Below are positions 5,780-38,428 of a stretch of 64,000 bases of DNA, piece after piece. The notes beneath the pieces are model-generated. The model saw only the letters and a list, made by a program, of their open reading frames with translations. It did not search any database and was not told the DNA's origin. Position 1 is the first letter of the stretch, and every line of letters begins with the position of its first letter. The DNA is from a virus (taxonomy: Duplodnaviria > Heunggongvirae > Uroviricota > Caudoviricetes). A program made the position numbers and the translations under genes. Where the stretch lies: the IMG/VR virus record IMGVR_UViG_3300025896_000021. One strand, given 5' to 3'.

Positions 5780-5786
5780 ACTCGTG

Positions 5787-5815
5787 TTGACTTGTGCAAT
5801 AAAACCCGCTACAAT
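5787..5815 (+). promoter_or_regulatory. Sigma70-like promoter, TTGACT-17-TACAAT
   Basis: -35 TTGACT and -10 TACAAT with a 17-nt spacer, about 40 nt upstream of the 5854 ORF. Confidence 0.5.
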
Positions 5816-5853
5816 ACACATTACTTCTTCTTAAATATTCTAAAGGAAACAAA

Positions 5854-6585: not shown

Positions 6586-6947
6586 TCAAGGGTCTAGCTA
6601 CCAGTAGTAGGTACACAGTTGTTTCTTCTGGGAACACTAGTGTTCCCTATATTAATCAAAATATGAACAATCCTATACAGGGCATGTTGCGTATCTGTGG
6701 TAGTGACCTGCAAGTATTTGACGGAAACAGTTGGATAGTTATGAATTCAAGTTATGCAAGTGTTGGGCTAACTCCTGATGCAGAATTGTTACTTGACTGG
6801 GCTAGACAAAAACGTGACGAAGAAGTTGCTACCCTAAAATTAGCAGAGACTAATCCTACTATCAAAGATTTGCTGAATACTATTAAGCAAAAGCAAGATC
6901 AAATAGAAATGGTCAAGATTCTAATGAAAAACGAAGTTAAAGTATAA
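6582..6947 (+). CDS. Hypothetical protein (121 aa)
   Basis: ORF track; ATGA-coupled to its neighbours. Confidence 0.5.
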   Translation: MIKGLATSSRYTVVSSGNTSVPYINQNMNNPIQGMLRICGSDLQVFDGNSWIVMNSSYASVGLTPDAELLLDWARQKRDEEVATLKLAETNPTIKDLLNTIKQKQDQIEMVKILMKNEVKV

Positions 6948-8497
6948 TGGATCAAGTTAATCTATCAGCAAGTCACAATCCCGATTGGGCATTGTTTTTA
7001 CCCGCAGTCAGTAGTTTCTATATCAGTGGCTTAGGTAAACAGCGTAAGGGTGAACAATACTTTGATGCTGCACGTATTCCTGCACAATTCAACGGCGATG
7101 TTGAGAAACTAAACTTCCTTAACAGCAAAGAAGGTCTATACTACTACAAGTGGGGCTTGTACTCTGCTGGTCACGCTAACTTAGATACAACTGTCAACGA
7201 TCCCAGTGAGTCAATCATTCGTGAACGTGAAGCCGGTACATTCATGCTAGGTGACAGTGGTGGCTTTCAGATTCTTAAAGGTCAATGGCCTGCAGACTGG
7301 AAAGATCCTAACTGTCCTCGTGCTATGTTAAAGCGTAAAGTTGTATTGAACTGGATGGATACGTACATGGACTATGGTATGTGTCTCGATATTCCATCAC
7401 AGTCATTGACTACTTTTGGCATGAAGGATAAGAACGGTGTAAGTCTTCATGGTATCAGTACTATTGAAGAAGCTATTACTGCTACCCATATCAACAATGA
7501 GTACTTTATTCAGAATCGTTCGGGCAAGTGTAAGTTCTTAAACGTATTGCAGGGTCGTAATCACGGTCAGTCGGAAGATTGGTATGCTGAAATGAAAAAG
7601 TACTGCGACCCAAATCAGTATCCTGACAACCACTTTAATGGTTGGGCATTCGGGGGTCAGAACAAGATTGACGTTCACTTGATGCTAACCCGCATGGTTG
7701 ATATCATCCATGACGGACTGTTGCAAGAAGGTAAGCACGACTTGATTCACTGTTTGGGTACAAGTATCTTAGAGTATGCTGTACTCTTTAGTGATATCCA
7801 ACGAGCTATTCGTAAGTATCACAACCCAAAACTTCAAATCACGTTTGATTGTGCTAGCCCATTCTATAGTGCAGCTAAAGGTCTTGCGTACTTCAACACG
7901 AACATTCAGCACAACAAGAAATGGTCATACAGTATGGAAAAGACTGCGGAGAAAAAGTCGTATGCAAACGACACTCGCAAGTTCCGTGATGCTGTGTTAG
8001 CTGAAGGTATCCATAAGATGTTTACTGATAGTCCGGTGACTGATAAACTAGTGCTTAAGGACCTTTGCTATCGTGGTCAAGGTTTCATTGGTCAGCATGG
8101 TAAAGAAACAAAGACCAGCTGGGATACTCTGAGCTATACCTTACTGCAAAGCCATAATGTGTACACTCACATGTCAGCAGTGCAAGAAGCCAATCGTCAA
8201 TATGATTTGGGCATTGTCCCAAAGATGTTGATGAACGAACAATTTGATAGGGTGTTGTTCAAGGATGTTATTGACGAAGTTTTCTCTAAGAAGAACAAGC
8301 AAGAAGCCATCGAATTGATTAACGCTAATTCTAGACTTTGGATGCAATTCCAATCAGGTAGTCAAGGTATCAGTGGTAAACGTACTGTCAACGCAATGAC
8401 TATGTTTGACCAATTATTTGAAACAGCATCAGAACCCGAAGTTGATGAAGTTATAGAAGACAGTGATGATGCGATTAATGAAGCATTGGGTGAATAA
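6947..8497 (+). CDS. dpdA: DpdA-like DNA-guanine transglycosylase (TGT superfamily, 516 aa)
   Basis: Contains FMLGDSGGFQILKGQW, matching the TGT catalytic-Asp motif (LxxDSGGFQ). There is no CxCxxC zinc site, and the protein is larger than typical phage DpdA. It sits with folE, queD and queE. Confidence 0.7.
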   Translation: MDQVNLSASHNPDWALFLPAVSSFYISGLGKQRKGEQYFDAARIPAQFNGDVEKLNFLNSKEGLYYYKWGLYSAGHANLDTTVNDPSESIIREREAGTFMLGDSGGFQILKGQWPADWKDPNCPRAMLKRKVVLNWMDTYMDYGMCLDIPSQSLTTFGMKDKNGVSLHGISTIEEAITATHINNEYFIQNRSGKCKFLNVLQGRNHGQSEDWYAEMKKYCDPNQYPDNHFNGWAFGGQNKIDVHLMLTRMVDIIHDGLLQEGKHDLIHCLGTSILEYAVLFSDIQRAIRKYHNPKLQITFDCASPFYSAAKGLAYFNTNIQHNKKWSYSMEKTAEKKSYANDTRKFRDAVLAEGIHKMFTDSPVTDKLVLKDLCYRGQGFIGQHGKETKTSWDTLSYTLLQSHNVYTHMSAVQEANRQYDLGIVPKMLMNEQFDRVLFKDVIDEVFSKKNKQEAIELINANSRLWMQFQSGSQGISGKRTVNAMTMFDQLFETASEPEVDEVIEDSDDAINEALGE

Positions 8498-8570
8498 CTT
8501 TATTAATACGGGCAAATTAGGCAGCACAACCAGCAAAAGTAGTGTATAATAACTTAACAGGAAATATTAA

Positions 8571-9017
8571 ATGCAAAGAGAACAAGCACTGACCGAAAAG
8601 CGTCAACGAATTAGACAAGAAGCCAAACGAACTATTTGGGTTACGTTTCGTAAAGAAGGCATTCATTGCTATCCAGCTGCAGGTCATCAACCTGATCTTG
8701 CAACTGGTGATGAGTTCGATGTGAGCTTTCTTGGCACACCACATCGACATATTTTTCACTTCACTGTGGGTATTCAAGTAAACCACAATGAACGTGACAT
8801 TGAGTTTATTCAATTCAAACGTTGGCTTGAGAAATTATATCAAGGCACGCTTGTATTGAATGACAAAAGCTGTGAAACAATTAGTGATGATCTCTATGAG
8901 GCAATTGCTAGTCGCTATCCAGAGCGTGACATTCAAATCTCTGTCGCAGAAGACGGTGAGAACGGATGCACTGTATATTACAACACAACTAAACCTATTA
9001 ACAACCTCGCTATCTAA
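8571..9017 (+). CDS. Hypothetical protein (148 aa)
   Basis: ORF track; possible extended -10 (TGTATAAT) upstream. Confidence 0.5.
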   Translation: MQREQALTEKRQRIRQEAKRTIWVTFRKEGIHCYPAAGHQPDLATGDEFDVSFLGTPHRHIFHFTVGIQVNHNERDIEFIQFKRWLEKLYQGTLVLNDKSCETISDDLYEAIASRYPERDIQISVAEDGENGCTVYYNTTKPINNLAI

Positions 9018-9026
9018 GGAAACAAA

Positions 9027-9233
9027 ATGGCAAAACTAAACCTTCAACCTAACCCACGTGTCTATCAACTCTTTGAGGACCTCGAAGCCTATAAGGAGTT
9101 CTGTGTGGATTACGGTTATAAGTTTGATGAATCAACCCTGTATGATATGCGCAGTTTCGCATATCGTCAACATACCAAGCAGCTTGCTGGTAAGTGGCCT
9201 AAGGATTCATGGGAAGACGCTATCCGTCGATGA
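9027..9233 (+). CDS. Hypothetical protein (68 aa)
   Basis: ORF track; RBS AAGGAAA. Confidence 0.45.
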   Translation: MAKLNLQPNPRVYQLFEDLEAYKEFCVDYGYKFDESTLYDMRSFAYRQHTKQLAGKWPKDSWEDAIRR

Positions 9234-10000
9234 AAGCAGTGTTAGTCACTGGGGGTTTCGACCCTCTGCACTCAGGTCACATTGAATATTTCAATGCCGC
9301 TAGAGAACTCGGCGATAAACTAATCGTCGGGTTGAACAGTGACGAATGGTTGACCCGTAAAAAAGGTCAACCTTTTATGCCTTGGGAAGAACGTGCAACT
9401 ATCGTATCATCATTGTATAATGTGGATAGAGTGATTAACTTTGATGATACCGACGACACTGCCAATGATGCAATACGTAAGGCTAGAAAAATCTTTCCTA
9501 ATCACGAAATCATCTTTGCTAACGGCGGAGACCGAACCAAAGAAAATATTCCAGAAATGGAATTACTTACTCAATACTTAAATTTAAAATTTGTATTTGG
9601 TGTAGGTGGGGAGAGCAAACTAAACAGTAGTAGTTGGATTCTGCGTGAGTGGAAGCAGCCGAAAACATTGCGCTCATGGGGATACTATTGTATACTACAT
9701 GATGTTGATGGATGCAAAGTTAAAGAACTCACCATTGAACCCGGTCAAAGTTTGAGTATGCAACGACATTTCAAACGACATGAGTTCTGGCATGTTACTG
9801 AAGGTGAATGTTACATTGATTCTCAACTGGCTAGTGGTTATGTGTTACCTACACAAAAACTAGTAAAGTTTAGTCAGGTTCAAATTCCATTAGGTGATTG
9901 GCATAAACTAACTAATCCATTTGACAAGCCATGTCGTATTGTAGAGATTCAATACGGCGAAGAGTGTGTAGAAGAAGACATTGAAAGAAAAGATGCGTAA
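9230..10000 (+). CDS. HxGH nucleotidyltransferase (RfaE domain II / cytidylyltransferase-like) fused to a C-terminal cupin
   Basis: Start ATG at 9230 overlaps the upstream stop (ATGA). GGFDPLHSGH ... LIVGLNSDEW ... RVINFDDTDDT resembles heptose-1-P adenylyltransferase and TagD. The C-terminal part has a cupin-like pattern (mannose-6-P isomerase type). Confidence 0.7.
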   Translation: MKAVLVTGGFDPLHSGHIEYFNAARELGDKLIVGLNSDEWLTRKKGQPFMPWEERATIVSSLYNVDRVINFDDTDDTANDAIRKARKIFPNHEIIFANGGDRTKENIPEMELLTQYLNLKFVFGVGGESKLNSSSWILREWKQPKTLRSWGYYCILHDVDGCKVKELTIEPGQSLSMQRHFKRHEFWHVTEGECYIDSQLASGYVLPTQKLVKFSQVQIPLGDWHKLTNPFDKPCRIVEIQYGEECVEEDIERKDA

Positions 10001-11168
10001 ACTATATTACATGGGTCTCGAACCCTACAAAGCACGATACACATTGCAGTTACAAGACTGGAATGAAAGTGTATTCAAGGAAAGAAATCTCGACTACATT
10101 ATCGTTCCTGGTGAAACACTTAGCGACGATCAAGCTATTGTAACAGGACAAGTGCTAGATGCACATGGTCGCACATACTTTGGTATGTCGCAACTTATGA
10201 ATCTAGTAAAGATGATGAAGGCAGGAGAATGTACCAATGAAGATGTTATCTACTTTGAAGATATGTTTCAACCAGGAATTGAATCTTTACCGTACATCCT
10301 TAAACAAATCCCAGAGGAATCGCGCCCAAGGATCTTTGTTCGTTGTCTCGCTCAGTCTATTGATCCAGATGATTTTGTACATGTCTGGGGAATGTCTGAC
10401 TTTATGGGTCACTATGAACGCATGGTTGACTCATTCGTTGATGGTGTACTTGCCACTAATGAAGAAATGGTAATGCATATGAAGATTGCGGGTTGGAAGG
10501 CACCAATTTACAATATCAGTGGGTTAGCATTTGGCAAGAGTGAAGTTCAATCTCGTGTTAGTTCTGTCAAGTCGTTCACTGAACGTACACACCGTGTTGT
10601 TTTTTCAGCACGTTGGGATCAAGAGAAGCAACCTGACTTCTACATGGACCTCATTGAAGCATGGCACAAGCGTCATCCAAGTAGTGGCGTTGAATTCTGT
10701 GTTTGCAGTGGTGGCAGCTTGAAAAGTAACAATGAAAGTTACATGAACCGTACGATGCACATGGTCAACATAGGTCAACTTCAAGTATACGAAGACTTAG
10801 AAAAAAATGATTACTACGATATTGTTAATAATTCTCGCGTGGTGTTCAACTGTGCTCTTCAGGACTGGGTCTCCAACACCGTCTCCGAAGCAGATGCGCT
10901 TGGCTGCAATGTGCTTTATCCTGCTTATCGTAGTTTTCCTGAAACATTTGCTAACGATCATACACGCCTCTACGTCCCTTGGTCTATAGAAGATGCAATG
11001 GACAAACTAGAGAAGTTATTGAAGAAGCCCCACGAGAAAATGGGACAAATCAGCGACCGCAATGATGGAACTATTGACCGTATCATTGATATCTTAGAAG
11101 GTAAAGGTCAACTAATGAAACGCATGACTACTGATTACAGAAAATATACTAGAGAAAGCAAATATTAA
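9981..11168 (+). CDS. Hypothetical protein, possible GT-B glycosyltransferase (395 aa)
   Basis: C-terminal VSNTVSEADALGCNVLYP resembles the GT4 E-x7-E donor-binding motif. The assignment is weak. Confidence 0.45.
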   Translation: MKEKMRKLYYMGLEPYKARYTLQLQDWNESVFKERNLDYIIVPGETLSDDQAIVTGQVLDAHGRTYFGMSQLMNLVKMMKAGECTNEDVIYFEDMFQPGIESLPYILKQIPEESRPRIFVRCLAQSIDPDDFVHVWGMSDFMGHYERMVDSFVDGVLATNEEMVMHMKIAGWKAPIYNISGLAFGKSEVQSRVSSVKSFTERTHRVVFSARWDQEKQPDFYMDLIEAWHKRHPSSGVEFCVCSGGSLKSNNESYMNRTMHMVNIGQLQVYEDLEKNDYYDIVNNSRVVFNCALQDWVSNTVSEADALGCNVLYPAYRSFPETFANDHTRLYVPWSIEDAMDKLEKLLKKPHEKMGQISDRNDGTIDRIIDILEGKGQLMKRMTTDYRKYTRESKY

Positions 11169-11169
11169 A

Positions 11170-11685
11170 ATGGCAACATGGAGTGTAAAACCTACATTTA
11201 AGAAGTCAATCATTGAGCGTAACTATCTTACTAAAGATGGTAACACAGTCATGATTGAAACAGGCTGGCGCTGGGGCGAGTTCACTGTAGAAACTGAGGA
11301 TGACAATCCACCAAACATTGAAGCAGGAGTAGATATCTATGACTGTGACTATGACGCTGAATTAGTTGAAACTAGTGATGGTTGTTGGGAAGAAGTTGAC
11401 ACAGATGAATGCGATGAAGAAACTACAACCTGGATCGAAGAATTCTTTGAAGAAGGTAACAGTTGGCTTGATCTAGAAGAAAACGGCTGGAGTCAAGACG
11501 AGTGTGAAATGATTATTGATTGTGACTTGGAAATCAGAAAGATCAATGATGATGGTTCATATAGTGACCCAGTTGTGATTGACGAATCTGAGGAAGATAA
11601 ACAGATTAGAGAATCACTTCCGACTCCCCAACTGACACCCAACGCAGCATGGCCATTTGGTACTCCGGAAGAAGGAGAAAAATAA
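11170..11685 (+). CDS. Acidic hypothetical protein (171 aa)
   Basis: ORF track; very Asp/Glu-rich. Confidence 0.5.
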   Translation: MATWSVKPTFKKSIIERNYLTKDGNTVMIETGWRWGEFTVETEDDNPPNIEAGVDIYDCDYDAELVETSDGCWEEVDTDECDEETTTWIEEFFEEGNSWLDLEENGWSQDECEMIIDCDLEIRKINDDGSYSDPVVIDESEEDKQIRESLPTPQLTPNAAWPFGTPEEGEK

Positions 11686-11876
11686 TGGCAACACGCAAAA
11701 ATAAACAGATTGACAACAGTGGAGTTGTAAAAGGTAACCATTTGACCGTAACTACTTTCTCTGATGGTAGAACTGTGTTAGAATGGGATGACGAAGCATT
11801 ATTAAAAGAAGTGCAAGAAGCACTCAAATCGGTAGAACAAAAACCAAAACGCAAATTAACAAAGGAAAAACAATGA
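11685..11876 (+). CDS. Hypothetical basic protein (about 63 aa)
   Basis: Internal ATG overlapping the upstream stop (TAATG), in the same frame as the 11649 track ORF. Confidence 0.4.
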   Translation: MATRKNKQIDNSGVVKGNHLTVTTFSDGRTVLEWDDEALLKEVQEALKSVEQKPKRKLTKEKQ

Positions 11877-12061
11877 GCGCACATACAGAAATTGAAACAC
11901 AATTAGCAGCATACCAAGCTGAATCAGCAAAGTTTGAAGCAGGCAACGCAGCAGCAGGTACCCGCGCCCGCAAAGCATTGGGTGAACTGTCTAAAGCAGT
12001 TAAGGCTCGTCGTAACGAGATTACCGAGACTAAGAACGCACGAAAAGAAGCTAAGGCTTAA
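11873..12061 (+). CDS. Hypothetical protein (62 aa)
   Basis: ORF track; ATGA overlap. Confidence 0.4.
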   Translation: MSAHTEIETQLAAYQAESAKFEAGNAAAGTRARKALGELSKAVKARRNEITETKNARKEAKA

Positions 12062-12074
12062 TTAGTGATAAATA

Positions 12075-12106
12075 AAATGTAAGCTACACAACGGTAGCTT
12101 ACATTT
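12075..12106. terminator. Hairpin with 12-13 bp stem (AATGTAAGCTAC...GTAGCTTACATT)
   Basis: Perfect inverted repeat immediately after the 11873 ORF. The T-run lies on the minus side, so the transcription direction it terminates is ambiguous. Confidence 0.35.
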
Positions 12107-12137
12107 CAAAAACAAACCATCACAAAGGAAGGTTATC

Positions 12138-12812
12138 ATGAGTTACAATAAACAAAAATGCGATCCAGAATTGGGTCAACGAGTTCACGAACATCTAGTT
12201 AAGATGGGAGTTGAGACTCCTACCAATCCAAACAGCTATGATCGTAAAGAAAAGATCGACCACATTGAAGCACACTTTACGCATATTATGCGTATCTTGG
12301 GTCTTGACTTATCAGACGATAGTTTGATTGAAACACCAAAGCGTGTTGCTAAGATGTACGTCAACGAAATATTTTGGGGTCTTGACTACGAAGCATTCCC
12401 CAAATGCACTACAGTTGACAACAAGATGAAGTACAACGAAATGGTGTGCGAACGCAATGTCAATGTACAATCAAACTGTGAACATCACTTTGTCGTCATT
12501 GACGGTCTTGCCACTGTTGCTTATGTACCAAAAGATAAAGTACTTGGATTGAGTAAGATCAATCGTATTGTAGAATATTTCTCGAAGCGTCCTCAAATTC
12601 AAGAACGACTTACCGAGCAAGTGTTTTATGCATTGCAGTATATCTTGGGCACAGAAGATGTTGCGGTTATGATTGATGCACAACATTATTGCGTTAAGAG
12701 TCGCGGTGTAGAAGATACTGGTAGTTCAACTGTCACTAGCAAACTAGGTGGTGGATTCAAAAGTGATCCAGCAGCTAGAGCAGAGTTCTATCAACTAGCA
12801 CGTGGTCGATAA
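12138..12812 (+). CDS. folE: GTP cyclohydrolase I (FolE)
   Basis: NCEHHFV ... KINRIVEYFSKRPQIQERLTEQV matches the FolE active-site and signature regions. Confidence 0.9.
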   Translation: MSYNKQKCDPELGQRVHEHLVKMGVETPTNPNSYDRKEKIDHIEAHFTHIMRILGLDLSDDSLIETPKRVAKMYVNEIFWGLDYEAFPKCTTVDNKMKYNEMVCERNVNVQSNCEHHFVVIDGLATVAYVPKDKVLGLSKINRIVEYFSKRPQIQERLTEQVFYALQYILGTEDVAVMIDAQHYCVKSRGVEDTGSSTVTSKLGGGFKSDPAARAEFYQLARGR

Positions 12813-12994
12813 TGAAAATTATCCCTATATGGCGTAAAGCCGTTTACGCTTTCTTTGCGCCATTGTTCATTTTTGTTTGGATGATCTTTCATCCAAAACT
12901 AGTTTGGGCACAAGCAAAGAAAGAATGGAATACGCCATCAGCTTGTAACTGTGATTGTAATCAAGGACGCAGATGTAATTGCGGTAAACAATGA
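12812..12994 (+). CDS. Small membrane protein with Cys-rich tail (60 aa)
   Basis: ORF track; hydrophobic segment followed by CNCDCNQGRRCNCG. Confidence 0.4.
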   Translation: MKIIPIWRKAVYAFFAPLFIFVWMIFHPKLVWAQAKKEWNTPSACNCDCNQGRRCNCGKQ

Positions 12995-13305
12995 ACGAAC
13001 TTACCAGACCAACGCCACCAAAGGCAAGACTAAGATGTGACGCATGTGGTACTATCGGCGAGGATAGAAAGCATAATAGTGTAATTTGCAGGTTTTTCCA
13101 ATGGCTAGATAAAACATTTCGGAGTAGAAGAATGATTGATGAAAATGGATATGAGTGGGAAGTATACTATAATGGTGTGTTGCTTGGTAGAACAAACACC
13201 GAAGGAAGACACCAACTTGTCAAAGAAAAAGTAGAGCATCCAATTGGCATACCGGAGATTGAATTTAAGTTGGTCTTGAAACAACATTTTGGAGTTGAAG
13301 AATGA
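12991..13305 (+). CDS. Hypothetical protein ending in HFGVEE (104 aa)
   Basis: ORF track. The C-terminal HFGVEE and the junction DNA motif are shared with five other small genes. Confidence 0.5.
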   Translation: MNELTRPTPPKARLRCDACGTIGEDRKHNSVICRFFQWLDKTFRSRRMIDENGYEWEVYYNGVLLGRTNTEGRHQLVKEKVEHPIGIPEIEFKLVLKQHFGVEE

Positions 13306-13502
13306 ATGAAAAAATTAAAGAACTTGCACTACAAGCAGGTGGTAGTCACTATCCCGATGTTGGTGGCAAAACACTAGAAAAGTTTGCCGAGTTGATTGTG
13401 CGGGAATGTGCTAGGGTAGCATTTGAAAGCGATTTGACAATGGCTATAGGACAATGGGGTGCCGACTCTGCAATTTTAAAACATTTCGGAGTTGAAGAAT
13501 GA
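13302..13502 (+). CDS. Small protein of the MNE(R/K)IKELA...KFAELIVREC...HFGVEE family (66 aa)
   Basis: Full-length paralogue of the 33180, 50953 and 57615 genes. Confidence 0.55.
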   Translation: MNEKIKELALQAGGSHYPDVGGKTLEKFAELIVRECARVAFESDLTMAIGQWGADSAILKHFGVEE

Positions 13503-13753
13503 AACTTGAATACACATCCGGCCCAGGCTGGACGAGAGTTGCACCAGTATACGAGCTTGGTGAAAAATACACTAGTATTATTGGCTGGCGTAGAGGACAC
13601 GGTCGTCCTTCCAAAGAAACAGTTGAAAGTTTATATCCAGACTGCAAGTTTGTTGGAGTAAACTATTACACGGGATGGTGCCCCAACACATTTAACCGTA
13701 AGACTTTTACTCACGTTTGTGTTGAACGAACATTTGGAGATAAATTATGCTAA
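13499..13753 (+). CDS. Hypothetical protein (84 aa)
   Basis: ORF track; ATGA coupling. Confidence 0.45.
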   Translation: MKLEYTSGPGWTRVAPVYELGEKYTSIIGWRRGHGRPSKETVESLYPDCKFVGVNYYTGWCPNTFNRKTFTHVCVERTFGDKLC

Positions 13754-13947
13754 AAGATAGAAGAACCTTAATGGAGCAAGAGATTGCTAAATTGAAGAAA
13801 ATATGTGGTGAAATGTATATTGCTGCAATACGAGGTGTTCAGACCGAAGAAGAACTTGCCATTTATGATGGTCACTTAGAAAAGTTGGGAACTATGGTAA
13901 CAGAACTGTCAATTATTAATGACATGATTAGTAAAGGTCACGAATGA
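13747..13947 (+). CDS. Hypothetical protein (66 aa)
   Basis: ORF track. Confidence 0.4.
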   Translation: MLKDRRTLMEQEIAKLKKICGEMYIAAIRGVQTEEELAIYDGHLEKLGTMVTELSIINDMISKGHE

Positions 13948-14107
13948 ACTTACAACCTAAAGATACAAGCAAGGGACATTTTTATGTCAGCCTTGTAAAG
14001 AGTGTACTACGCATTGGCGCAGGCACATCATTGATTATGGTAGGCTTCCTCGAAGCAGGCACATTGCTAATTGTTGCAGAAGTTCTAGGCATTGTAGAGG
14101 AATTGGT

Positions 14108-14395
14108 GTGACAGGTTCGCACAATGAGTTCATAGATGAGCTAAGGAAAGATCCAGTGAAACTTAAAAAGTTTCTACGTGATGTAATGGGGCCGTCTTGT
14201 AGAATCATTGAGGGAGTTGAGAAAGAACATATGTTAACTGTGTTCAGGCTCATTAAACCCACTGACACAAGTAACAATCAACATACTTGGACTACAGTGT
14301 ATCATCATGCAGGCAAAGAGTATCACCTAACTGACGGTGTTGGATTTGACGAATTAACAGAGATACTACCGGAGAACGATGATGAGAAATCTTGA
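14108..14395 (+). CDS. Hypothetical protein (95 aa)
   Basis: ORF track. Confidence 0.4.
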   Translation: MTGSHNEFIDELRKDPVKLKKFLRDVMGPSCRIIEGVEKEHMLTVFRLIKPTDTSNNQHTWTTVYHHAGKEYHLTDGVGFDELTEILPENDDEKS

Positions 14396-14582
14396 ATTAG
14401 TTGATGCAGTAATAGCACTGCACGAGATTGCACGAACAGTAGAAACTGAAGTAGGTCACGGTCAATTGAGCGAAGATATCCGTAGTTGCGCTGACAGACT
14501 ACATGAACTTAGTATCTCTGAAAGAGAACACGAAGTTAGAATGAAAGATGCGATAAACAAGGCTAAAAATGATATTCAATAA
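14379..14582 (+). CDS. Hypothetical protein (67 aa)
   Basis: ORF track. Confidence 0.4.
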   Translation: MMRNLELVDAVIALHEIARTVETEVGHGQLSEDIRSCADRLHELSISEREHEVRMKDAINKAKNDIQ

Positions 14583-15027
14583 GATCAAAGAACTAAAAGA
14601 CAAGGGACTAAAGATTGGCATCACCTTTAGCCAATTTGACCTATTGCATGCGGGACATATCGCAATGCTTAGCCAAGCTAAGAACCATTGTGATTATCTT
14701 ATTGCTGCACTGCAAAACAATGCTCAATGGGATCGTCCTGAAAAGAACGAACCTATTCAAAGTATCGTTGAAAGACAGATTAGTTTAAGTGCTGTAAGGT
14801 TTGTAGATGAAATCGTAGTCTACAACACCGAGAAGGACCTTGAAGATATCTTACTCACACTACCTATTGATGTTCGCATTTTGGGTGTAGAGTACAGAGA
14901 CAAAGAATTTACGGGCAAAGATATCTGTGCCCAAAGAAACATTGAATTAGTGTTCAATGGACGTGACCACTCTTTTAGCTCTAGTAGCTTGAGAAAAAGA
15001 GTAGTGGAAGCACAAAAAGGTAAATAA
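14569..15027 (+). CDS. Cytidylyltransferase-like HxGH nucleotidyltransferase (152 aa)
   Basis: ITFSQFDLLHAGHIAML ... YLIAAL ... VDEIVVY resembles glycerol-3-P cytidylyltransferase and RfaE domain II (GxFDxxHxGH). Confidence 0.7.
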   Translation: MIFNKIKELKDKGLKIGITFSQFDLLHAGHIAMLSQAKNHCDYLIAALQNNAQWDRPEKNEPIQSIVERQISLSAVRFVDEIVVYNTEKDLEDILLTLPIDVRILGVEYRDKEFTGKDICAQRNIELVFNGRDHSFSSSSLRKRVVEAQKGK

Positions 15028-15103
15028 GAGTAGCGGCCTTTTAGGGCATCATCCCGCTTTACAAATTCTGCTGCCTATGATATAATATAACATAGGAAAA
15101 ATA

Positions 15104-15583
15104 ATGTCAAAGAAATATTTCAGTACAAAAACATACAAGCAGATTGGACCAGTTGCTTATCGTCAATGGCGTGCAGATAGTCATTGCAATCTAATTCACG
15201 GTTATGCAATGTCGTTTCATTTTGAATTTGAAGCAGACACCCTAGACGCACGAAACTGGGTAACTGACTTTGGTGGACTAAAGCCACTCAAAGCATTGCT
15301 AGAAGATTGGTTTGATCACACATTATTAGTTGCACAAGATGACCCAATGCGTGAAGAATTACTTAACTTGGGTAAACTGAAACTAGCGAAGATTACAGAA
15401 GTAGAAAAGACAGGATGCGAAGGCATTGCTGACTTCTTGTATGAATATGTTAATACAATTTTCTTGCCAAGCTGTGGCAGTGCAGAAGCTGAACGAGTTT
15501 GGTGTACACGGGTTGAAGTGCGTGAGACAGATAACAACATGGCAGGTCGTCAAGGTCGTAGAGAAGATAACGAGTTTCAATAA
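15104..15583 (+). CDS. queD: 6-carboxy-5,6,7,8-tetrahydropterin synthase (QueD)
   Basis: SHCNLIHGYAMSFHFEF ... NWVTDFGGLK fits the QueD / 6-pyruvoyl-tetrahydropterin synthase CxxxHGH motif and fold pattern. Confidence 0.85.
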   Translation: MSKKYFSTKTYKQIGPVAYRQWRADSHCNLIHGYAMSFHFEFEADTLDARNWVTDFGGLKPLKALLEDWFDHTLLVAQDDPMREELLNLGKLKLAKITEVEKTGCEGIADFLYEYVNTIFLPSCGSAEAERVWCTRVEVRETDNNMAGRQGRREDNEFQ

Positions 15584-16431
15584 TGAGTAAATTAAAAATT
15601 AGTGAGTTGTTCTATAGCATTCAGGGTGAAGGGAAGTACATGGGTGTTCCCTCCGTGTTTCTTAGAACATACGGATGCAATTTTACATGCGGTGGCTTTG
15701 GTATGGCCAAGGGAGAAATGAGTAATGAAAGAGATATTATTGCGGTTAAGGCAGAAGATTACACGGATTATAAATCCTTACCACTTGTCAGCACGGGTTG
15801 TGATTCTTATGCATCTTGGGACCCTCGTTTCAAACATCTTAGTCCTGTGCTCGATTCCGATACTATTGCTAACAGCATTTGTGATTTACTGCCTGGACAT
15901 CGTTGGCTCGATGAACACTTGGTTATCACGGGTGGCGAACCGCTTCTTGGTTGGCAAAGAGCGTATCCTGAATTACTTTCGCATGAGAGAATGAAGGGTT
16001 TGCAAGAACTAACATTTGAAACAAACGGTACTCAGATGATTACACCTGAGTTTGGACAGTACTTGCATGACTGGCAAAAGATGAGAATGAAACATTCGGT
16101 CACATTTAGTGTCAGTCCAAAGTTGTCTATCAGCGGTGAGAAAACAGAAGATGCTATCATTCCCGATGTGATCAATCAATATCAAAACTATGGCTCGGTG
16201 TATCTCAAGTTTGTAGTAGCAACTGAATCCGATGTGAAAGAAGCTGAGGATACAGTGTTAGCATACAAGCGTAAAGGATTCAAGGGTCATATTTACTTGA
16301 TGCCATGCGGTGGGGTAGAATCACTATACAATCTAAATGCTAAGAATGTTGCAATCGCAGCAATGAATCGTGGCTGGCGTTATAGTGATAGACTACAGGT
16401 GCCATTGTTTAAGAACGAGTGGGGCACATGA
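15583..16431 (+). CDS. queE: 7-carboxy-7-deazaguanine synthase (QueE, radical SAM)
   Basis: N-terminal SIQGEGKYMGVPSVFLRTYGCNFTC and LVITGGEPLL match QueE. The start is ATGA-coupled to queD. Confidence 0.85.
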   Translation: MSKLKISELFYSIQGEGKYMGVPSVFLRTYGCNFTCGGFGMAKGEMSNERDIIAVKAEDYTDYKSLPLVSTGCDSYASWDPRFKHLSPVLDSDTIANSICDLLPGHRWLDEHLVITGGEPLLGWQRAYPELLSHERMKGLQELTFETNGTQMITPEFGQYLHDWQKMRMKHSVTFSVSPKLSISGEKTEDAIIPDVINQYQNYGSVYLKFVVATESDVKEAEDTVLAYKRKGFKGHIYLMPCGGVESLYNLNAKNVAIAAMNRGWRYSDRLQVPLFKNEWGT

Positions 16432-16679
16432 TTGCAACTAGAATTATAGACAATGACATGGGTGCAGTATTAAAAGTACCTCTAACTGGTAGAGGCACTA
16501 TTCATGGTATTACTATTGTGATTGATGCGGTTAAACTTCCTGAATTTGATATAAGCCTCTTAGAAATATTATCAGTTGACAAGTGCATAGCACGGTTCAC
16601 TACGCACGTAGAAGAACATATATCGGATATAGAAGACCGAGTAAAGTTTATTGACTATTACAAGAAATGGGTAAAATAA
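16419..16679 (+). CDS. Hypothetical protein (86 aa)
   Basis: ORF track. Confidence 0.4.
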   Translation: MGHMIATRIIDNDMGAVLKVPLTGRGTIHGITIVIDAVKLPEFDISLLEILSVDKCIARFTTHVEEHISDIEDRVKFIDYYKKWVK

Positions 16680-18028
16680 TGAAATTATACAGCAAACGAA
16701 TTGCATTCTTAATAAGTGACCAACACTTTATCCCCCACGGTGGAATTGGTTCCTTCTGTAAGAGTTTTACAGAAATGTGTGGCCGATTGAATTGGAAAGT
16801 TGACATTATCTTAGACAAAGCGCCTACTGGTACCTTTGACACAGTTATTAAAAATGCAGGCGCAAATCTAGTATGGCCACTTGAACCACTAAAGTACAGT
16901 GACCACACTGCTACCTTTGCGTTTAGTGATACCATCAACTTTGAAAAGATTATCAACTTTCGCAAAGCATTACTAGAAGCATTTGAAGAAAACGTATATG
17001 ACATGGTGGTGTGTAATACGCAGGAAGCAATGACTGCTGCCTATGCTATGACTATTAACAAGTATATCCCTGTGATATTCTACACCCACTTACATTCAAT
17101 GATTTTTCGTGATAGTCAGGGTAGCGATGTGTTCTTAGATAGCTATCATAATTTCTATAACAAGCATATGGAGTTTACTGATATCGTCATCGGAACACAA
17201 AGTCAAAAGAATATAGATGAGTTAACAAAGTACGGCGCGACAAATACCGCACTTCTACGCATGCCTATGAGTGAGCGTGGTCTATTAGAACACAATGTTA
17301 CTAAGCGAAGTGGGGTGTTATTCATTGGTCGTTGGGAAGAAGGCAAGAACCCAGATGCATATATTCGTGCAATGAAAGAAGCACAACTTCCTTGCAAAGT
17401 AATGACTAACAGCAATGGTGCAAAGAAGTTTGAGAAAGCGTTTGCTGATGCAGGTATTATTGATTATGAAATCAAAGCGGGCATCACTGGTCAAGAAAAA
17501 GTAGACTTTATCACAAGTTCTAGTGTGTTCTTTATGCCAAGTCTGCGTGAGAACTATCCTTTTGCTTTCTTGGAATGTCTTGGTCACATGCCATGCGTAG
17601 TATTAGACAATCAAGATTGGTCAGATAATTTTGATGAAAAATATTTTCATAAAGTAAATGTCAAGAATGTAGCAGAGACAATTAACGCAGTGTACGGATC
17701 AATACAAAGTACGGAGGCACTGGACTATGTACGTGAACTAGACGACCAAGTTGCACATGGTTGGGTAAGTTTTCTAGATAACTTTGTTGGTAAGCGTAGT
17801 AATACATCAGCCGCAAAGATTAACACTTACGAGACAATCAAGTATCGTGATTACATTTCTCAGTTGAATCGCAAGCATTTGGCACGAGAAGACTTTGAAA
17901 GTGTGTTGTCAAACAAGTACAAGTTTATCAATGTTTGGTACACTGACAATGACACATACTTAAGCAAAGACCCAACATTTAAACCAGTAGAGGAAGTAAC
18001 AGGCGCAAGTCTGTTTGAATTCGCATGA
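16667..18028 (+). CDS. GT-B fold glycosyltransferase (GT4-like, about 450 aa)
   Basis: C-terminal FFMPSLRENYPFAFLECLGHMPCVVLD matches the GT4 E-x7-E motif. The alternative start ATG at 16679 overlaps the upstream stop. Confidence 0.6.
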   Translation: MGKIMKLYSKRIAFLISDQHFIPHGGIGSFCKSFTEMCGRLNWKVDIILDKAPTGTFDTVIKNAGANLVWPLEPLKYSDHTATFAFSDTINFEKIINFRKALLEAFEENVYDMVVCNTQEAMTAAYAMTINKYIPVIFYTHLHSMIFRDSQGSDVFLDSYHNFYNKHMEFTDIVIGTQSQKNIDELTKYGATNTALLRMPMSERGLLEHNVTKRSGVLFIGRWEEGKNPDAYIRAMKEAQLPCKVMTNSNGAKKFEKAFADAGIIDYEIKAGITGQEKVDFITSSSVFFMPSLRENYPFAFLECLGHMPCVVLDNQDWSDNFDEKYFHKVNVKNVAETINAVYGSIQSTEALDYVRELDDQVAHGWVSFLDNFVGKRSNTSAAKINTYETIKYRDYISQLNRKHLAREDFESVLSNKYKFINVWYTDNDTYLSKDPTFKPVEEVTGASLFEFA

Positions 18029-18855
18029 AAAAGATTTTGATTACAGGTAACTCAGGTTACATCGGTTCGCATCTTACTAAGATGTTGAAGGGTGAATACG
18101 AGATTCACGGGCTAGATTTAGTGCCTAACAAAATTGATGTTGACAAGCAGCATATTATTGACATTCGTAGGTTGTTTGAACTTCACTACGAATACGATGC
18201 AGTCATTCATTTAGCTGCATTAGTGAACGTAGGCGAGAGTGAATTGAAACCACTGAGTTACTATATCACTAACTTGAACGGCACAATGAATGTACTAAGT
18301 AAAATAAAGACAAAGAACTTTATATTTGCTAGTACCGGCGCCGCAGTCAGTTGTGAGTCAGCATATGGAATCAGCAAAAGAGCAGCAGAAGATGTGGTTC
18401 GTGAATATTGTACTCAGCACAAGGTTACTCCATACACTATCTTTAGATTCTACAATGTGATCGGTAGTGATGGCTTTGCCCCGACAAATCCAGACGGACT
18501 GATGTACAATCTATTGAGAGCTAAAGAGACAGGTGAATTTACTATCTTTGGTAAAGACTATGATATCAGCAGTGACGGTACGTGTGTGCGTGACTATGTT
18601 CACGTGAATGAAATCTGTGATGCATTACGTACAGCAATTGAGAAGCCTAGCAACAGTGTTGAATCATTAGGGCATGGTGTGGGATACACTGTGCAAGAAA
18701 TTGTAGACAAGTTCCAGATCGTCAATGATGTTGACTTTGATGTGAAATATGGTCCTAGAAGAAAGGGCGACATTGCTAGTTCGGTATTAGAAGACGTGTC
18801 ACCTTACATGAGGAACCTCTATACTATGGACGAATTGTTAAAGGTTGACAATTAA
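18025..18855 (+). CDS. NAD-dependent epimerase/dehydratase or sugar reductase (extended SDR, 276 aa)
   Basis: N-terminal Rossmann motif ILITGNSGYIGSHL; catalytic YGISK (YxxxK). Confidence 0.75.
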   Translation: MKKILITGNSGYIGSHLTKMLKGEYEIHGLDLVPNKIDVDKQHIIDIRRLFELHYEYDAVIHLAALVNVGESELKPLSYYITNLNGTMNVLSKIKTKNFIFASTGAAVSCESAYGISKRAAEDVVREYCTQHKVTPYTIFRFYNVIGSDGFAPTNPDGLMYNLLRAKETGEFTIFGKDYDISSDGTCVRDYVHVNEICDALRTAIEKPSNSVESLGHGVGYTVQEIVDKFQIVNDVDFDVKYGPRRKGDIASSVLEDVSPYMRNLYTMDELLKVDN

Positions 18856-18902
18856 ACATCTTTGTGTTATGATACGTTCTACTCAATATTTATGGATGAC
18901 TT

Positions 18903-19937
18903 ATGACTATTAAACGTATCGGCTTTGCCTGCAAATTTTCTGAAATCAATAGCAAGGGTGAGGTATCTAGTATACCCGAACTAAACACAGGTGGCACAAC
19001 TCTTGCCTGGGCAAAGCGTCAAAGTAAGTCAGTAGCAGAAGAAAAAATCATTGAAGTTGCAAAACGCAACATCCTGCATACTCACAATCTGGTCAAGCGT
19101 GTCGCCTCACTGCGACCCGAACTACGCATGGTTCGTCTTACTAGTGACATGCTTTCATTCTACACACATCCCGACTGGCAAGGTTTCTGGCAAGACACTG
19201 ACATTCAAAACAAGCTAGCACATTGGTTTGCGCCCATCGGTGAGACTGCACGAGCCAATGATGTTCGTCTTTCGTTTCACCCTGACCAGTTTGTAGTTTT
19301 AGCAAGCGACCGTGAAGAAGTAGTAAATAACAGTATCAGAGAATTTGAATATCATACTGACATGGTTCGTTGGATGGGCTATGGCAAGACATTTCAAGAC
19401 TTCAAAGTTAATGTACACATCAGTGGTCGTAAAGGTCCGCAGGGCATTCGTGATGTATACAATCGTTTGTCACCCGAAGCCCGCAACACACTTACACTAG
19501 AGAATGAAGAATACACACATGGACTACTTGACTGCTTATCGTTATCTGACCTCGTCCCTACGGTCATGGACATTCACCATAATTGGATTCGTGAGGGAGA
19601 ATACGTTCAACCTAATGATGCGATTGTACAACGGGTTATTGATTCTTGGCGTGGCGTTCGCCCTACTTGCCATTACAGTGTTAGCCGCGAAGATGTACTC
19701 ACAGGTCATTCCGTTGCACAACTACCCGATCATGGCGCGCTGATTGCAGCAGGACACAATAAACAAAAACTACGGGCACACAGTGACTATTACTGGAATG
19801 ACGCAGTGAACGATTGGGCACTGACTTTCTATGAAAATTTTGACATGATGTGCGAAAGCAAAGCTAAAAACTTAGCCAGCTTCAAACTTTATGATACATA
19901 CAATAATGCTAAACAAACTAAAAACCCTATTCTCTAA
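18903..19937 (+). CDS. uvdE: UV damage endonuclease (UvdE family)
   Basis: RIGFACKF ..., LSFHPDQFVVL, TLENEE..., RAHSDYYW align with conserved UvdE blocks (for example Bacillus UvsE). Confidence 0.8.
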   Translation: MTIKRIGFACKFSEINSKGEVSSIPELNTGGTTLAWAKRQSKSVAEEKIIEVAKRNILHTHNLVKRVASLRPELRMVRLTSDMLSFYTHPDWQGFWQDTDIQNKLAHWFAPIGETARANDVRLSFHPDQFVVLASDREEVVNNSIREFEYHTDMVRWMGYGKTFQDFKVNVHISGRKGPQGIRDVYNRLSPEARNTLTLENEEYTHGLLDCLSLSDLVPTVMDIHHNWIREGEYVQPNDAIVQRVIDSWRGVRPTCHYSVSREDVLTGHSVAQLPDHGALIAAGHNKQKLRAHSDYYWNDAVNDWALTFYENFDMMCESKAKNLASFKLYDTYNNAKQTKNPIL

Positions 19938-20379: not shown

Positions 20380-20386
20380 TAAAAGG

Positions 20387-20415
20387 TTGACATTTAATGA
20401 ATTTGGTGCTATAAT
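20387..20415 (+). promoter_or_regulatory. Early sigma70-type promoter, TTGACA-17-TATAAT family
   Basis: TTGACAtttaatgaatttggtgcTATAAT, about 33 nt upstream of the 20448 ATG. Confidence 0.7.
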
Positions 20416-20447
20416 AGAGACTTCTTACAAGCAACTGGATTCATAAA

Positions 20448-21641
20448 ATGGCAACTAAAATAGCATTCATATTTCCCTGGACCGATGTACCAAAAGGTCA
20501 GCTAGTTGATATCTCAAAAATCAAAAATCCACTTGATAGTAAACGGTTGAAGTCAGCAAAGCCTAAAACATTAGCACAATCAGTAGCGGAGCTTGAAAAG
20601 AATCCTCTCGTTGCTAACGTATTAGCAGATTTGAAAAAGCGTGGCAAAACGTTTAATCCAGCCAAAATCGGCGTATTCAAAAATCAAAAGATTGGACGAG
20701 CAACTTTCTTGGAAGAAACCCAACGACTCGTAATTGCAAAGCACGTAGCTGATATTATGAATGGTTGTCAGGAAGAGTTACTGAGCCCTGTATTTGCTAC
20801 TGTCAGCGCAGACGGTAAAACTAATCCCTCATTTGATACTCAACACGGCATTAACGTAGTTGGATTATTTGCAAAGCATGGCTTGTGGGACGGGGTAGAC
20901 CCGACCAAATGGGAAGACTTTGAATTCCCGTTCTTTATTGTTAACAACACAGATACAGCATTTGCCAACGAAGCTGCCTATCACCGAAATGGTAAAGGTC
21001 AAAAGAAATGGACCGGCTTTGATTTTCACCGAATCAAAGTTGTAGGTGTTCGTCAACATAATTCCACAGATAAAACTTATGTGGATGCTGAAAAGCGTCA
21101 AGCTATTTGCGAAAAGCACGAAGCAATCCCTGTCCAAGCAAATCATTCGCAACGCGGCAAAGCAGGTACATTGGATCGGGTTGACCCGATATACAATTGG
21201 AAATTAAAGACACTTGACTTTATTATGGGTACGCACAAAAAATACTGGCATGGCACAAAATTTGATAGTGCTGCGTACGGCTTGTATGGTCACTTGTATG
21301 ATAATATGAAAGCCAAACATATCCCAATGACCGGTCCTCAATGGAGTGAGTTTTTGGATAACTTTCACGCTATCATTAAAAAGTGTTTCACTGATTTGTC
21401 TACCTTGCGTAAAGAAACAGAAGCAGCACACGTTGCATGGCATACTGACGCATATCCTAACATCAAAAATCACAAACTTAATTCAACTAATTGTGCTTTG
21501 GCTATTGTTTTGAAAATTTATCAAAACTTGCATGGATCTCATCCACTGACCAACGATGCGAATGATTTTAACTACAATGGGTATGACCTTTACAATTATT
21601 TGGACGCAGTTGATGTTATTGACGCAGTAAAAAATGCCTAA
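20448..21641 (+). CDS. Hypothetical protein (397 aa)
   Basis: ORF track; has its own promoter; no recognisable motif. Confidence 0.6.
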   Translation: MATKIAFIFPWTDVPKGQLVDISKIKNPLDSKRLKSAKPKTLAQSVAELEKNPLVANVLADLKKRGKTFNPAKIGVFKNQKIGRATFLEETQRLVIAKHVADIMNGCQEELLSPVFATVSADGKTNPSFDTQHGINVVGLFAKHGLWDGVDPTKWEDFEFPFFIVNNTDTAFANEAAYHRNGKGQKKWTGFDFHRIKVVGVRQHNSTDKTYVDAEKRQAICEKHEAIPVQANHSQRGKAGTLDRVDPIYNWKLKTLDFIMGTHKKYWHGTKFDSAAYGLYGHLYDNMKAKHIPMTGPQWSEFLDNFHAIIKKCFTDLSTLRKETEAAHVAWHTDAYPNIKNHKLNSTNCALAIVLKIYQNLHGSHPLTNDANDFNYNGYDLYNYLDAVDVIDAVKNA

Positions 21642-38334: not shown

Positions 38335-38428
38335 TAGTCGCATATATTGCACAAGAGGGTGCAATATATATTATAGTAGATGCCTTCGGGGTCTATCACA
38401 AAAATCTTGCTTTCTAAAGGAGAAAAAA

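Follow-up and report, generated by a model that had tools for sequence, protein, structure and literature searches.

What are two glycosyltransferases doing among the genes by which a phage would make a 7-deazaguanine base and insert it into its DNA? The question is raised by a 64,000-nucleotide stretch (hereafter the window) of the IMG/VR record IMGVR_UViG_3300025896_000021, which derives from a jumbo phage of freshwater type with a genome of ~359 kb. An earlier account drawn from the letters of the window alone (the sequence-only reading) had noted two HxGH nucleotidyltransferases (NTases), two glycosyltransferase-like proteins, and an epimerase of the extended short-chain dehydrogenase/reductase (SDR) type beside deazaguanine genes, and had suggested a new hypermodification on the grounds that no described 7-deazaguanine modification carries a sugar. 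That premise is sound: eight 7-deazaguanine DNA bases are described, all with small C7 substituents and none with a sugar, and our literature search turned up neither a glycosylated deazaguanine in DNA nor any account of glycosyltransferase genes in clusters of this kind. Pfam, motif, and AlphaFold2 (AF2)/Foldseek analyses also bear out the gene list, with all five enzyme types on the plus strand at 9230-18855 (Table 1). We consider it an evenly balanced call whether the window encodes a QueC-less 7-deazaguanine DNA-modification system extended by glycosylation, and the sugar on the DNA base is what we infer from the comparative data presented here.

The window holds both parts that mark DpdA-based systems, a DNA transglycosylase of the tRNA-guanine transglycosylase (TGT) superfamily and the enzymes FolE, QueD, and QueE. 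Although dpdA had been counted among the genes at 9230-18855, no transglycosylase open reading frame (ORF) lies there, and the sole candidate is the ORF at 6947-8497. This ORF contains DSGGFQ, a TGT/DpdA-like motif, and has no match in Pfam, NCBIfam, PHROGs, or PDB sequences. Its homologues in cultured phages are gp168 of PA5oct and relatives (34.6% identity) and proteins of Sinorhizobium phage Phosso and Vibrio phage 2.275.O, and the synteny between the window and PA5oct around the gene is clear. A profile of this subfamily aligned with one of DpdA2-type proteins, which included the experimentally validated VH7D enzyme, over 180 columns with all motifs in order, though only at E 7.4e-4 and a probability of 25.7%. 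In Foldseek searches the sole match near significance was an archaeosine TGT, and the best structural match is a bacterial DpdA (7ui4). We accept the protein as a DpdA-family insertase of a long subfamily, recognized by its fold and with guanine exchange as its predicted activity. Identity with DpdA3 of phage phiST was rejected because the window-type DpdA profile does not match DpdA3, which has 259 residues versus 516 in the window protein, the latter grouping with PA5oct gp168. Another ORF considered as a dpdA candidate (20448-21641) found no support and was dropped.

A component overlooked in the sequence-only reading is DpdL. The ORF at 8571-9017 holds FLGTPHRHIFHF, that is L-x3-HRH-x-F, the signature that defines this QueD paralogue: LxxxHRHxF replaces the CxxxHGH of QueD, and the gene co-occurs with DpdA, FolE, QueD, and QueE in the absence of QueC (PMC10516641). 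The window shows both the motif and the gene context. Its DpdL is 59% identical to the PA5oct homologue and homologous to ACP17 gp125 and to proteins of phages BUDD and BUCT-ZZ01; a tblastn search with a Chryseobacterium ORF that contains DpdL was uninformative, as the N-terminal half of that ORF is an HNH endonuclease. DpdL has so far only been proposed to be a 7-carboxy-7-deazaguanine (CDG) decarboxylase (Hutinet et al. 2023, PMC10516641). Hidden Markov models (HMMs) of QueC and QueF built from pf16 and 2.275.O detected QueC and QueF in the phages that served as controls (pf16, 2.275.O, and VH7D) and neither gene in the 64-kb window or in ~270 related loci, which suggests that the pathway stops at CDG or 7-deazaguanine and not at preQ0. 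QueC is the preQ0 synthase, on which the preQ0, preQ1, G+, and ADG branches depend. The lack of QueC and the presence of DpdL, both overlooked in the sequence-only reading, change which base is the likely acceptor. As for products, phiST DNA has been found by mass spectrometry to contain plain 2'-deoxy-7-deazaguanosine (dDG) as a full substitution, and PA5oct DNA resists restriction at G-containing sites and is reported to contain a modified G (PMC12191111). The DpdL and DpdA of ACP17 were not sufficient for modification in E. coli, where dDG was not reconstituted (PMC10516641).

The first of the two glycosyltransferase-like proteins, which we call GT4L, is divergent. It falls short of the GT4 family threshold in Pfam (Glycos_transf_1, 2.6e-5, 24.3 bits vs. 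a cut-off of 26.4), matches no NCBIfam or PHROG family, and as a profile against PDB sequences yields only marginal matches to GT4 C-terminal domains. The AF2 model (mean predicted local distance difference test score, pLDDT, 62) has 283 PDB matches at E<=1e-3 in Foldseek, and all of the 50 listed are GT-B enzymes with TM-scores of 0.5-0.58, mostly retaining glycosyltransferases such as LmbT, MshA, PimB', glycogen synthase, OtsA, BshA, and SenB, which confirms the GT-B fold. T4 alpha-glucosyltransferase bound to DNA (1y6g) ranks 25th; this likeness is at the level of the fold only, with no Pfam or PHROG match to the T4 alpha- and beta-glucosyltransferase families (GT63/GT72). The donor-site motifs R...EK.P and D/E-x7-E are invariant among GT4L homologues down to 21% identity (E-x7-E in ACP17, PA5oct, and BUDD, D-x7-E in the window and BUCT-ZZ01) and match the residues with which GT4 enzymes bind phosphate and sugar, and the N-terminal domain has invariant EP...RYT, Q, D, D, and E positions. 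A HMMER search of 1.84 billion representatives, clustered at 50% identity, returned only 781 clusters, of which 215 reached E<=1e-30; with so few members, GT4L is a separate, compact family and not a generic GT4. Its predicted activity is glycosyl transfer from a nucleotide-diphosphate sugar. The extra length of a 655-residue representative (P0396) is a low-complexity tail and not an informative fusion.

The strongest constraint on the role of GT4L is the company it keeps. Among IMG/VR contigs, 321 have a DpdA 81-94% identical to that of the window, and in the 80 of these that we fetched the gene order is kept as DpdA-DpdL-p68-[NTase-cupin]-GT4L-...-FolE-...-NT2-QueD-QueE-...-GTB453-SDR (abbreviations as in Table 1), with GT4L 74-87% identical wherever the contig covers it; the arrangement is therefore not a matter of chance. 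A second, diverse set consists of 80 IMG/VR viral loci chosen by an alignment query for a GT4L homologue alone (24-43% identity to ACP17 gp124, with ACP17 itself included as L086). Many of the contigs are truncated. Scans of IMG/VR with single proteins, ACP17 gp124 and PA5oct gp167, had returned ACP17 itself or nothing. At least one of DpdA, DpdL, FolE, QueD, and QueE was encoded within 8 kb of GT4L in 79 of the 80 diverse loci. DpdA and DpdL were each found within that distance in 62, and within 300 bp in 54 and 44, respectively. Bacterial and metagenome-assembled loci tell a similar story, with a GT4L-DpdL-DpdA triad in 11/12 (Magnetospirillum, Methylobacterium, Lentilitoribacter, and others); such loci (L173-L183) belong to chromosomal contigs as long as 1.4 Mb, and the only QueD-like match nearby is often a weak one.

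Every GT4L homologue that we found in a cultured phage also sits in a deazaguanine cluster, and these phages fall into five unrelated groups. The order is QueE-phosphoribosyltransferase-QueD-FolE-GTB453 homologue-DpdA2-DpdL-GT4L in cyanophage BUCT-ZZ01, DpdA2-GT4L-DpdL-QueE in Acidovorax phage ACP17, and GT4L-DpdA2-DpdL-QueE in Xanthomonas phages BUDD and X1; Burkholderia phage BCSR5 has GT4L in its deazaguanine cluster, and in PA5oct the homologue gp167 (36% identity to ACP17 gp124) is flanked by gp168 (DpdA) and gp166 (DpdL). Conversely, GT4L is absent from the QueC/QueF-type DpdA phages pf16, 2.275.O, and VH7D, from the whole genome of the DpdL-bearing phiST, and from the 8 kb around DpdL in four other cultured phages, for which reason we rejected the idea that it accompanies every DpdL. 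Being almost confined to deazaguanine clusters and missing from QueC/QueF phages, phiST, and some DpdL phages, GT4L is an optional extra of the QueC-less branch, albeit one with high specificity for it. The sequence-only reading had held that finding the sugar genes in related phages without dpdA or que genes would refute a link to the modification; for both glycosyltransferases we looked for this and did not find it. The wider statement, which ties the sugar enzymes to the deazaguanine genes and not to host glycans, has strong comparative support for the glycosyltransferases and moderate support for NT2 and the epimerase; the NTase-cupin protein is an accessory.

GTB453, the second glycosyltransferase, is a more conventional GT4 enzyme. 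It carries the motifs HGGIGSF (the GGxG loop) and GRWEEGKNP and an exact E-x7-E, ENYPFAFLE; its Pfam Glycos_transf_1 match (7.2e-5, 22.8 bits) is below the cut-off, and its profile finds the GT4 enzymes TreT (1.9e-4) and WlaC in the PDB. Homologues occur within the deazaguanine clusters of BUCT-ZZ01 (41% identity) and loci L087 and L123. In phages whose neighboring genes are 70-98% identical, GTB453 comes in two allele classes that are ~44% identical (from a comparison of L002-L081 with P0121-P0240). QueD likewise forms two classes among the relatives (~51-60% vs. 86-89%), and L042 is a clear mosaic (NT2 98%, p68 99%, GTB453 44%). The SDR gene follows that of GTB453 in ~70 of the 80 close relatives and adjoins that of GT4L in the PA5oct-like loci L090, L148, and L157, and a truncated SDR is gp164 of PA5oct. 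Its top 30 PDB matches are all UDP-glucose/galactose 4-epimerases (from 4.9e-32), and it has the GNSGYIG form of the GxxGxxG NAD site and the YGISK form of YxxxK expected of GalE, in 276 residues vs. ~338 for GalE; by these signatures it is probably a UDP-hexose 4-epimerase.

The two NTases are harder to place. Their HxGH motifs are HSGH in the NTase-cupin protein and HAGH in NT2, and both pass the PF01467 cut-off of 21 with room to spare (52.3 and 38.3 bits, respectively). The fusion matches CTP_transf_like (8.7e-14), MannoseP_isomer (1e-17, the C-terminal cupin), and Cupin_2 in Pfam and, below the NCBIfam cut-offs, rfaE domain II (7e-23) and the C-terminal part of GMP_PMI (1.3e-16), and the closest PDB relatives of its N-terminal part are cytidylyltransferases for ethanolamine phosphate and glycerol-3-phosphate. 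NT2 matches rfaE domain II (2.9e-18) and TagD (3.3e-14), again below cut-off, and its nearest PDB entry is TagD (9.6e-13). The nucleotide-sugar role originally suggested for both is not established, as CTP:phospho-alcohol cytidylyltransferases of the TagD and ethanolamine-phosphate type match at least as well as sugar-1-phosphate transferases, and no equivalog cut-off (HldE, TagD, or CoaD) that would define a substrate is reached. NT2 is present in nearly all close relatives, and 13 unrelated viral loci, probably marine, have a homologue immediately 5' of DpdL-GT4L-DpdA. The NTase-cupin protein, in contrast, was stressed in the sequence-only reading and is absent from ~25 of ~60 informative close relatives, so we rejected it as a core part. 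No cultured phage has the full-length fusion, and the closest cultured relatives of its NTase domain (47-53% identity) are cyanophage proteins whose annotation is heptose or glycerol-phosphate nucleotidyltransferase; que genes were not noted for these matches. The absence of the fusion in many relatives and this cyanophage kinship together make it an accessory.

Further genes recur in GT4L/DpdL clusters elsewhere. One is a type-I phosphoribosyltransferase, which the window lacks; it is found in PA5oct (L001, 15946-16380), in BUCT-ZZ01 (L082, 9102-9563), in L089-L091, and in 11/80 loci L189-L268, and it lies between QueD and QueE in some relatives of the window lineage. This is a hint that the deaza base may be handled at the nucleotide level, as in tubercidin and toyocamycin biosynthesis. 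An ORF like phosphoribosyltransferases also occurs elsewhere in the phiST genome. In BCSR5 a PIG-L-like sugar deacetylase (E 4.7e-5, below cut-off) is encoded one small ORF upstream of GT4L. The stretch from DpdL to GT4L in that phage (L166, 8357-11105) encodes an AAA_28 protein, a protein resembling phosphoadenosine-phosphosulfate (PAPS) reductases, and the PIG-L-like protein (GlcNAc deacetylase family), all of them weak matches; in BUDD a protein with a PAPS_reduct domain adjoins FolE (8.4e-13).

A pathway that accommodates these genes can be outlined. FolE, QueD, and QueE, which are clear members of their families, would make CDG, and DpdL would probably decarboxylate it to 7-deazaguanine, as the literature proposes. 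The DpdA-like transglycosylase would then swap guanine in the phage DNA for the deaza base. GT4L would use a nucleotide-activated donor to glycosylate the deazaguanine, either as the free base or in DNA, and GTB453 would add a second sugar or use a second site. The donor would be provided or diversified by NT2 and the GalE-like epimerase (UDP-Glc to UDP-Gal type), and by the NTase-cupin protein in those phages that have it. Candidate attachment points are the C7 carboxylate of CDG (an acyl glycoside) and C7 or C8 of the electron-rich pyrrole ring (a C-glycoside). Some GT4L loci lack a detectable DpdL, so the sugar may be accepted by the carboxylate of CDG; loci with DpdL would require a C-glycoside at the pyrrole ring. 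As with other phage hypermodifications, the expected purpose would be protection from restriction and other DNA-targeting defenses. More generally, we tentatively propose, at somewhat below even confidence, that GT4L-bearing phages replace guanine with a glycosylated 7-deazaguanine by way of a GT-B family dedicated to this reaction. The scope of that proposal, put forward just as cautiously, would take in thousands of environmental jumbo-phage contigs, PA5oct, ACP17, BUDD, X1, BUCT-ZZ01, and the Magnetospirillum and Methylobacterium loci (possibly prophages).

Several points weigh against glycosylation of the base. Chemically, 7-deazaguanine has no obvious oxygen or nitrogen handle at C7, so an unusual linkage or action before decarboxylation must be assumed, and for GT4L-bearing phages at large the sugar is a prediction from genes. 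Some GT4L loci are without a detectable DpdL (e.g., L149, L155, L160, and L161) and some DpdL phages are without GT4L, so no single acceptor can be assigned to GT4L on this basis. Donor supply by the NTases and the SDR is the weakest link, in that both NTases resemble enzymes that form CDP-alcohols, and neither NT2 nor the SDR was found in the flanks of BUCT-ZZ01, ACP17, or BUDD (~9-14 kb around GT4L). GT4L proteins are acidic (isoelectric point 5.4-6.2), although this does not discriminate between a DNA-binding and a small-molecule enzyme because all of these proteins, including validated DpdA2 enzymes, are acidic. Finally, the two AF2 models are weak (pLDDT 62 and 58) and therefore safe for statements about the fold only, the HMMs were built from 1-6 sequences each, and near-duplicates among the 80 diverse loci put the number of independent lineages well below 80.

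In the main rival explanation, the synthesis or insertion of the base requires GT4L, which leaves no sugar behind, so that the final DNA contains plain dDG or its 7-carboxy counterpart (dCDG). GT4L could form a transient glycosylated or activated CDG or 7-deazaguanine intermediate for DpdA or DpdL, or it could be a structural partner of DpdA, as DpdB is in bacterial Dpd systems. Such a role would explain why ACP17 DpdL and DpdA were insufficient in E. coli (PMC10516641) and why GT4L lies between or beside DpdL and DpdA in most loci, and it suits the Magnetospirillum and Methylobacterium loci, which are bare triads with no NT2, SDR, or GTB453 match within 8 kb. The recurring phosphoribosyltransferase, too, suggests chemistry at the level of the free base or nucleotide. 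However, phiST reaches fully substituted dDG without GT4L, the invariant donor-site residues favor catalysis over scaffolding, and retention of no sugar would leave the presence of both a GalE-like epimerase and a further GT4, a canonical one, hard to account for. We regard this explanation as rather unlikely, if worth serious attention.

A different group might also be transferred. In a version that we think improbable, a phospho-alcohol (glycerol-phosphate or ethanolamine-phosphate) would be delivered from a CDP donor made by NT2 or the NTase-cupin protein, or would decorate a first sugar. The nearest solved relatives of the NTases, TagD and ethanolamine-phosphate cytidylyltransferase, speak for it, as does the direct coupling of NT2 to DpdL-GT4L-DpdA in 13 loci. 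Yet GT4, GT5, and GT20 enzymes that transfer hexosyl groups figure among the top 50 structural matches of GT4L whereas TagF-type glycerophosphotransferases do not, rfaE domain II (a sugar-1-phosphate adenylyltransferase) scores at least as well as TagD in NCBIfam, and the GalE-like epimerase and the cupin of phosphomannose-isomerase type indicate hexose chemistry. There is also the view, raised with the sequence-only reading, that the sugar enzymes act on host or virion glycans (lipopolysaccharide, capsule, or protein glycosylation) and merely share an early-gene neighborhood with the que genes. The NTase-cupin protein lends itself to this, being dispensable in close relatives and having its NTase domain kin in cyanophages without noted que genes. 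Other findings speak against it: GT4L, GTB453, NT2, and the SDR each recur in deazaguanine clusters of unrelated phages, GT4L is outside such a context in just 1/80 viral loci, and the neighbors in the window are DNA polymerase, exonuclease, and repair genes and not structural or lysis genes. Host-glycan remodeling by the two glycosyltransferases is thus unlikely, and glycan-directed action as the explanation of the whole set of sugar enzymes has very little going for it.

Precedents for parts of the proposed glycosylation exist. In T-even phages the hydroxymethylcytosine in DNA is glycosylated by T4 alpha- and beta-glucosyltransferases, and other phages make arabinosyl-hydroxymethylcytosine; the acceptor is the hydroxyl of a modified pyrimidine. 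The window resembles these systems in having phage GT-B enzymes in a DNA-metabolism region, in pairs or variable sets, and differs in that the partner is a purine-replacing deaza base without a hydroxyl; no hydroxymethylcytosine pathway was seen among the window ORFs scanned. In eukaryotic tRNA, queuosine is converted to mannosyl-queuosine by the GT4-family enzyme GTDC1/QTMAN and to galactosyl-queuosine by B3GNTL1. There, as proposed here, a GT-B enzyme of GT4 type acts on a derivative of 7-deazaguanine after its incorporation into a nucleic acid, although this is analogy and not a homology shown here: the substrate is RNA, the acceptor is a cyclopentenediol hydroxyl, and the QueC, QueF, QueA, and QueG steps that are needed are absent here. 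No Pfam match to the GTDC1 N-terminal domain was reported in the window. In the MshA/MshB and BshA/BshB pathways a GT4 enzyme puts GlcNAc on a small acceptor and a PIG-L-family deacetylase follows. Structurally, GT4L has MshA and BshA among its best matches, and the PIG-L-like ORF of BCSR5 echoes that logic, albeit in one phage only and below the Pfam cut-off, and the window has no such gene. Bacterial Dpd systems (DpdA/DpdB/DpdC, with dPreQ0 and dADG) share with the window the DpdA fold, their 7ui4 being the best match of the insertase; unlike the window they are preQ0-based and do not include glycosyltransferases, and DpdB, DpdC, and a restriction module were not identified among the window ORFs scanned. 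Another close known system is that of phiST (DpdA3 + DpdL + FolE/QueD/QueE; Hutinet et al. 2023, PMC10516641), which is likewise QueC-less and CDG-terminal, with an LxxxHRHxF DpdL and a TGT-superfamily insertase, and adjoins a DNA polymerase. Its 79-kb genome, however, has no GT4L, GT4, epimerase, or HxGH NTase.

If the glycosylated base is real, it would be the first sugar-bearing purine-type base in DNA, and the sugar could be attached in an unprecedented way, as a C-glycoside of the pyrrole ring or through the C7 carboxylate as an acyl glycoside. Glycosylated deazaguanine would form a new class in the repertoire of phage DNA modifications, with relevance for restriction and CRISPR evasion, for type IV restriction and DNA-glycosylase defenses that sense modified G, and for the sequencing and cloning of such DNA. 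It is a candidate explanation for the modified G of PA5oct (PMC12191111) and for the failure to reconstitute dDG with ACP17 DpdA and DpdL (PMC10516641). The DpdL-GT4L-DpdA triad is a simple genomic marker, and cultured phages such as PA5oct, a therapy-candidate Pseudomonas phage, allow the proposal to be tested. A GT-B enzyme directed at nucleic acids or nucleobases might also serve as a tool for labeling deazaguanine DNA.

The cluster lies in a co-directional, tightly packed region of DNA metabolism on the plus strand (~3-23 kb; Table 1), for which megablast of 9000-19000 against cultured phages gave no match. The notion that it forms one translationally coupled block is correct as to direction and to most gene junctions, which overlap by 1-17 nucleotides, and incorrect as to continuity, since gaps, promoter-like elements, a hairpin, and a run of small ORFs without conservation (12812-14582) interrupt it. 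Gaps of ~75 nucleotides precede the genes at 5854, 8571 (DpdL), 12138 (FolE), and 15104 (QueD). Sigma70-like elements occur in three of them: TTGACT-N17-TACAAT in 5780-5853, and TGnTATAAT-like -10 boxes 5' of DpdL (8498-8570) and QueD (15028-15103); a further gap, 20380-20447, has TTGACA-N17-TATAAT. The gap 5' of FolE (12062-12137) holds a hairpin, with the inverted repeat GTAAGCTAC...GTAGCTTAC. Because such gaps break up the co-directional block, the cluster is probably transcribed in several units, presumably by the host polymerase.

Table 1. Genes of the deazaguanine cluster and its borders in the window (ORFs defined stop-to-stop).
Feature	Position	Strand	Basis or remark
Family-B DNA polymerase	3062-5779	+	followed by a structural-protein homologue
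DpdA-like DNA-guanine transglycosylase, 516 aa (putative)	6947..8497	+	long subfamily that includes PA5oct gp168
DpdL, QueD paralogue, 148 aa	8571..9017	+	LxxxHRHxF signature; phrog_17812 9.5e-30
p68, small conserved ORF, 68 aa	9027..9233	+	between the DpdL and NTase-cupin genes
NTase-cupin, HxGH NTase-cupin fusion	ORF 9209-10000, probable start 9230	+	Pfam
GT4L, divergent GT-B protein, 391 aa	ORF 9981-11168, probable ATG 9993	+	AF2 and Foldseek
Acidic protein and two small ORFs	between GT4L and FolE		gene order
FolE (GTP cyclohydrolase I)	12138..12812	+	PF01227 3.8e-61
Eight small overlapping ORFs, 55-104 aa	12812-14582	+	between FolE and NT2
NT2, small HxGH NTase, TagD/HldE-domain-II type	14569..15027	+	CTP_transf_like 1.8e-9
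QueD (6-carboxytetrahydropterin, CPH4, synthase)	15104..15583	+	PF01242 8.4e-16
QueE (CDG synthase, radical SAM)	15583..16431	+	phrog_2076 4.3e-53; weak radical-SAM Pfam matches
86-aa ORF	between QueE and GTB453		gene order
GTB453, canonical GT4-family glycosyltransferase, 449 aa	ORF 16667-18028, probable start 16679	+	GT4 motifs
SDR, GalE-like extended SDR, 276 aa	18025..18855	+	PF01370 (Epimerase) 1.2e-33
UvdE-type UV-damage endonuclease	18903-19937	+	1.3e-37; directly 3' of the epimerase, followed by a 5'-3' exonuclease

Among the smaller genes, p68 is found in nearly all close relatives at 54-99% identity and overlaps the next gene by 4 nucleotides. The stretch of small ORFs between FolE and NT2 looks like a hypervariable insertion zone inside the cluster: one of its ORFs (12991-13305) has no homologue in the 80 close relatives, and several end in the same C-terminal peptide, ...HFGVEE. 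A 62-residue ORF between GT4L and FolE (11873-12061, plus strand) encodes an Hc1-type histone-like DNA-binding protein, with PF07432 listed for the matching gene on the near-identical contigs L185 and L186, whose DpdA is identical to that of the window. The UvdE gene was not found at this position in the fetched relatives, the downstream flanks of which rarely extend that far.

Outside the cluster, a fibre-like protein with TIG, He_PIG, and glycine-rich domains is encoded at 427-1899 (plus strand), in a region (1-2000) of 50% G+C compared with ~40% elsewhere; contig L185 has three such paralogues in tandem, of which this one comes last. Near the polymerase, a single ORF of any size is on the minus strand (1971-2663); it shows a weak NUMOD3 motif and may be a homing endonuclease. 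The polymerase gene of PA5oct is split by a homing endonuclease. A phage SPFH/Band-7 protein, ClpX, a full-length DnaK (Hsp70, 7.7e-255), and ClpP are encoded at 31607-32404, 37126-40330, and 44025-44615. Further along are an NMN adenylyltransferase-Nudix fusion and a nicotinamide phosphoribosyltransferase (49926-50951 and 52423-53856), which together form the type of NAD-salvage pair that reportedly counters defenses based on NAD depletion.

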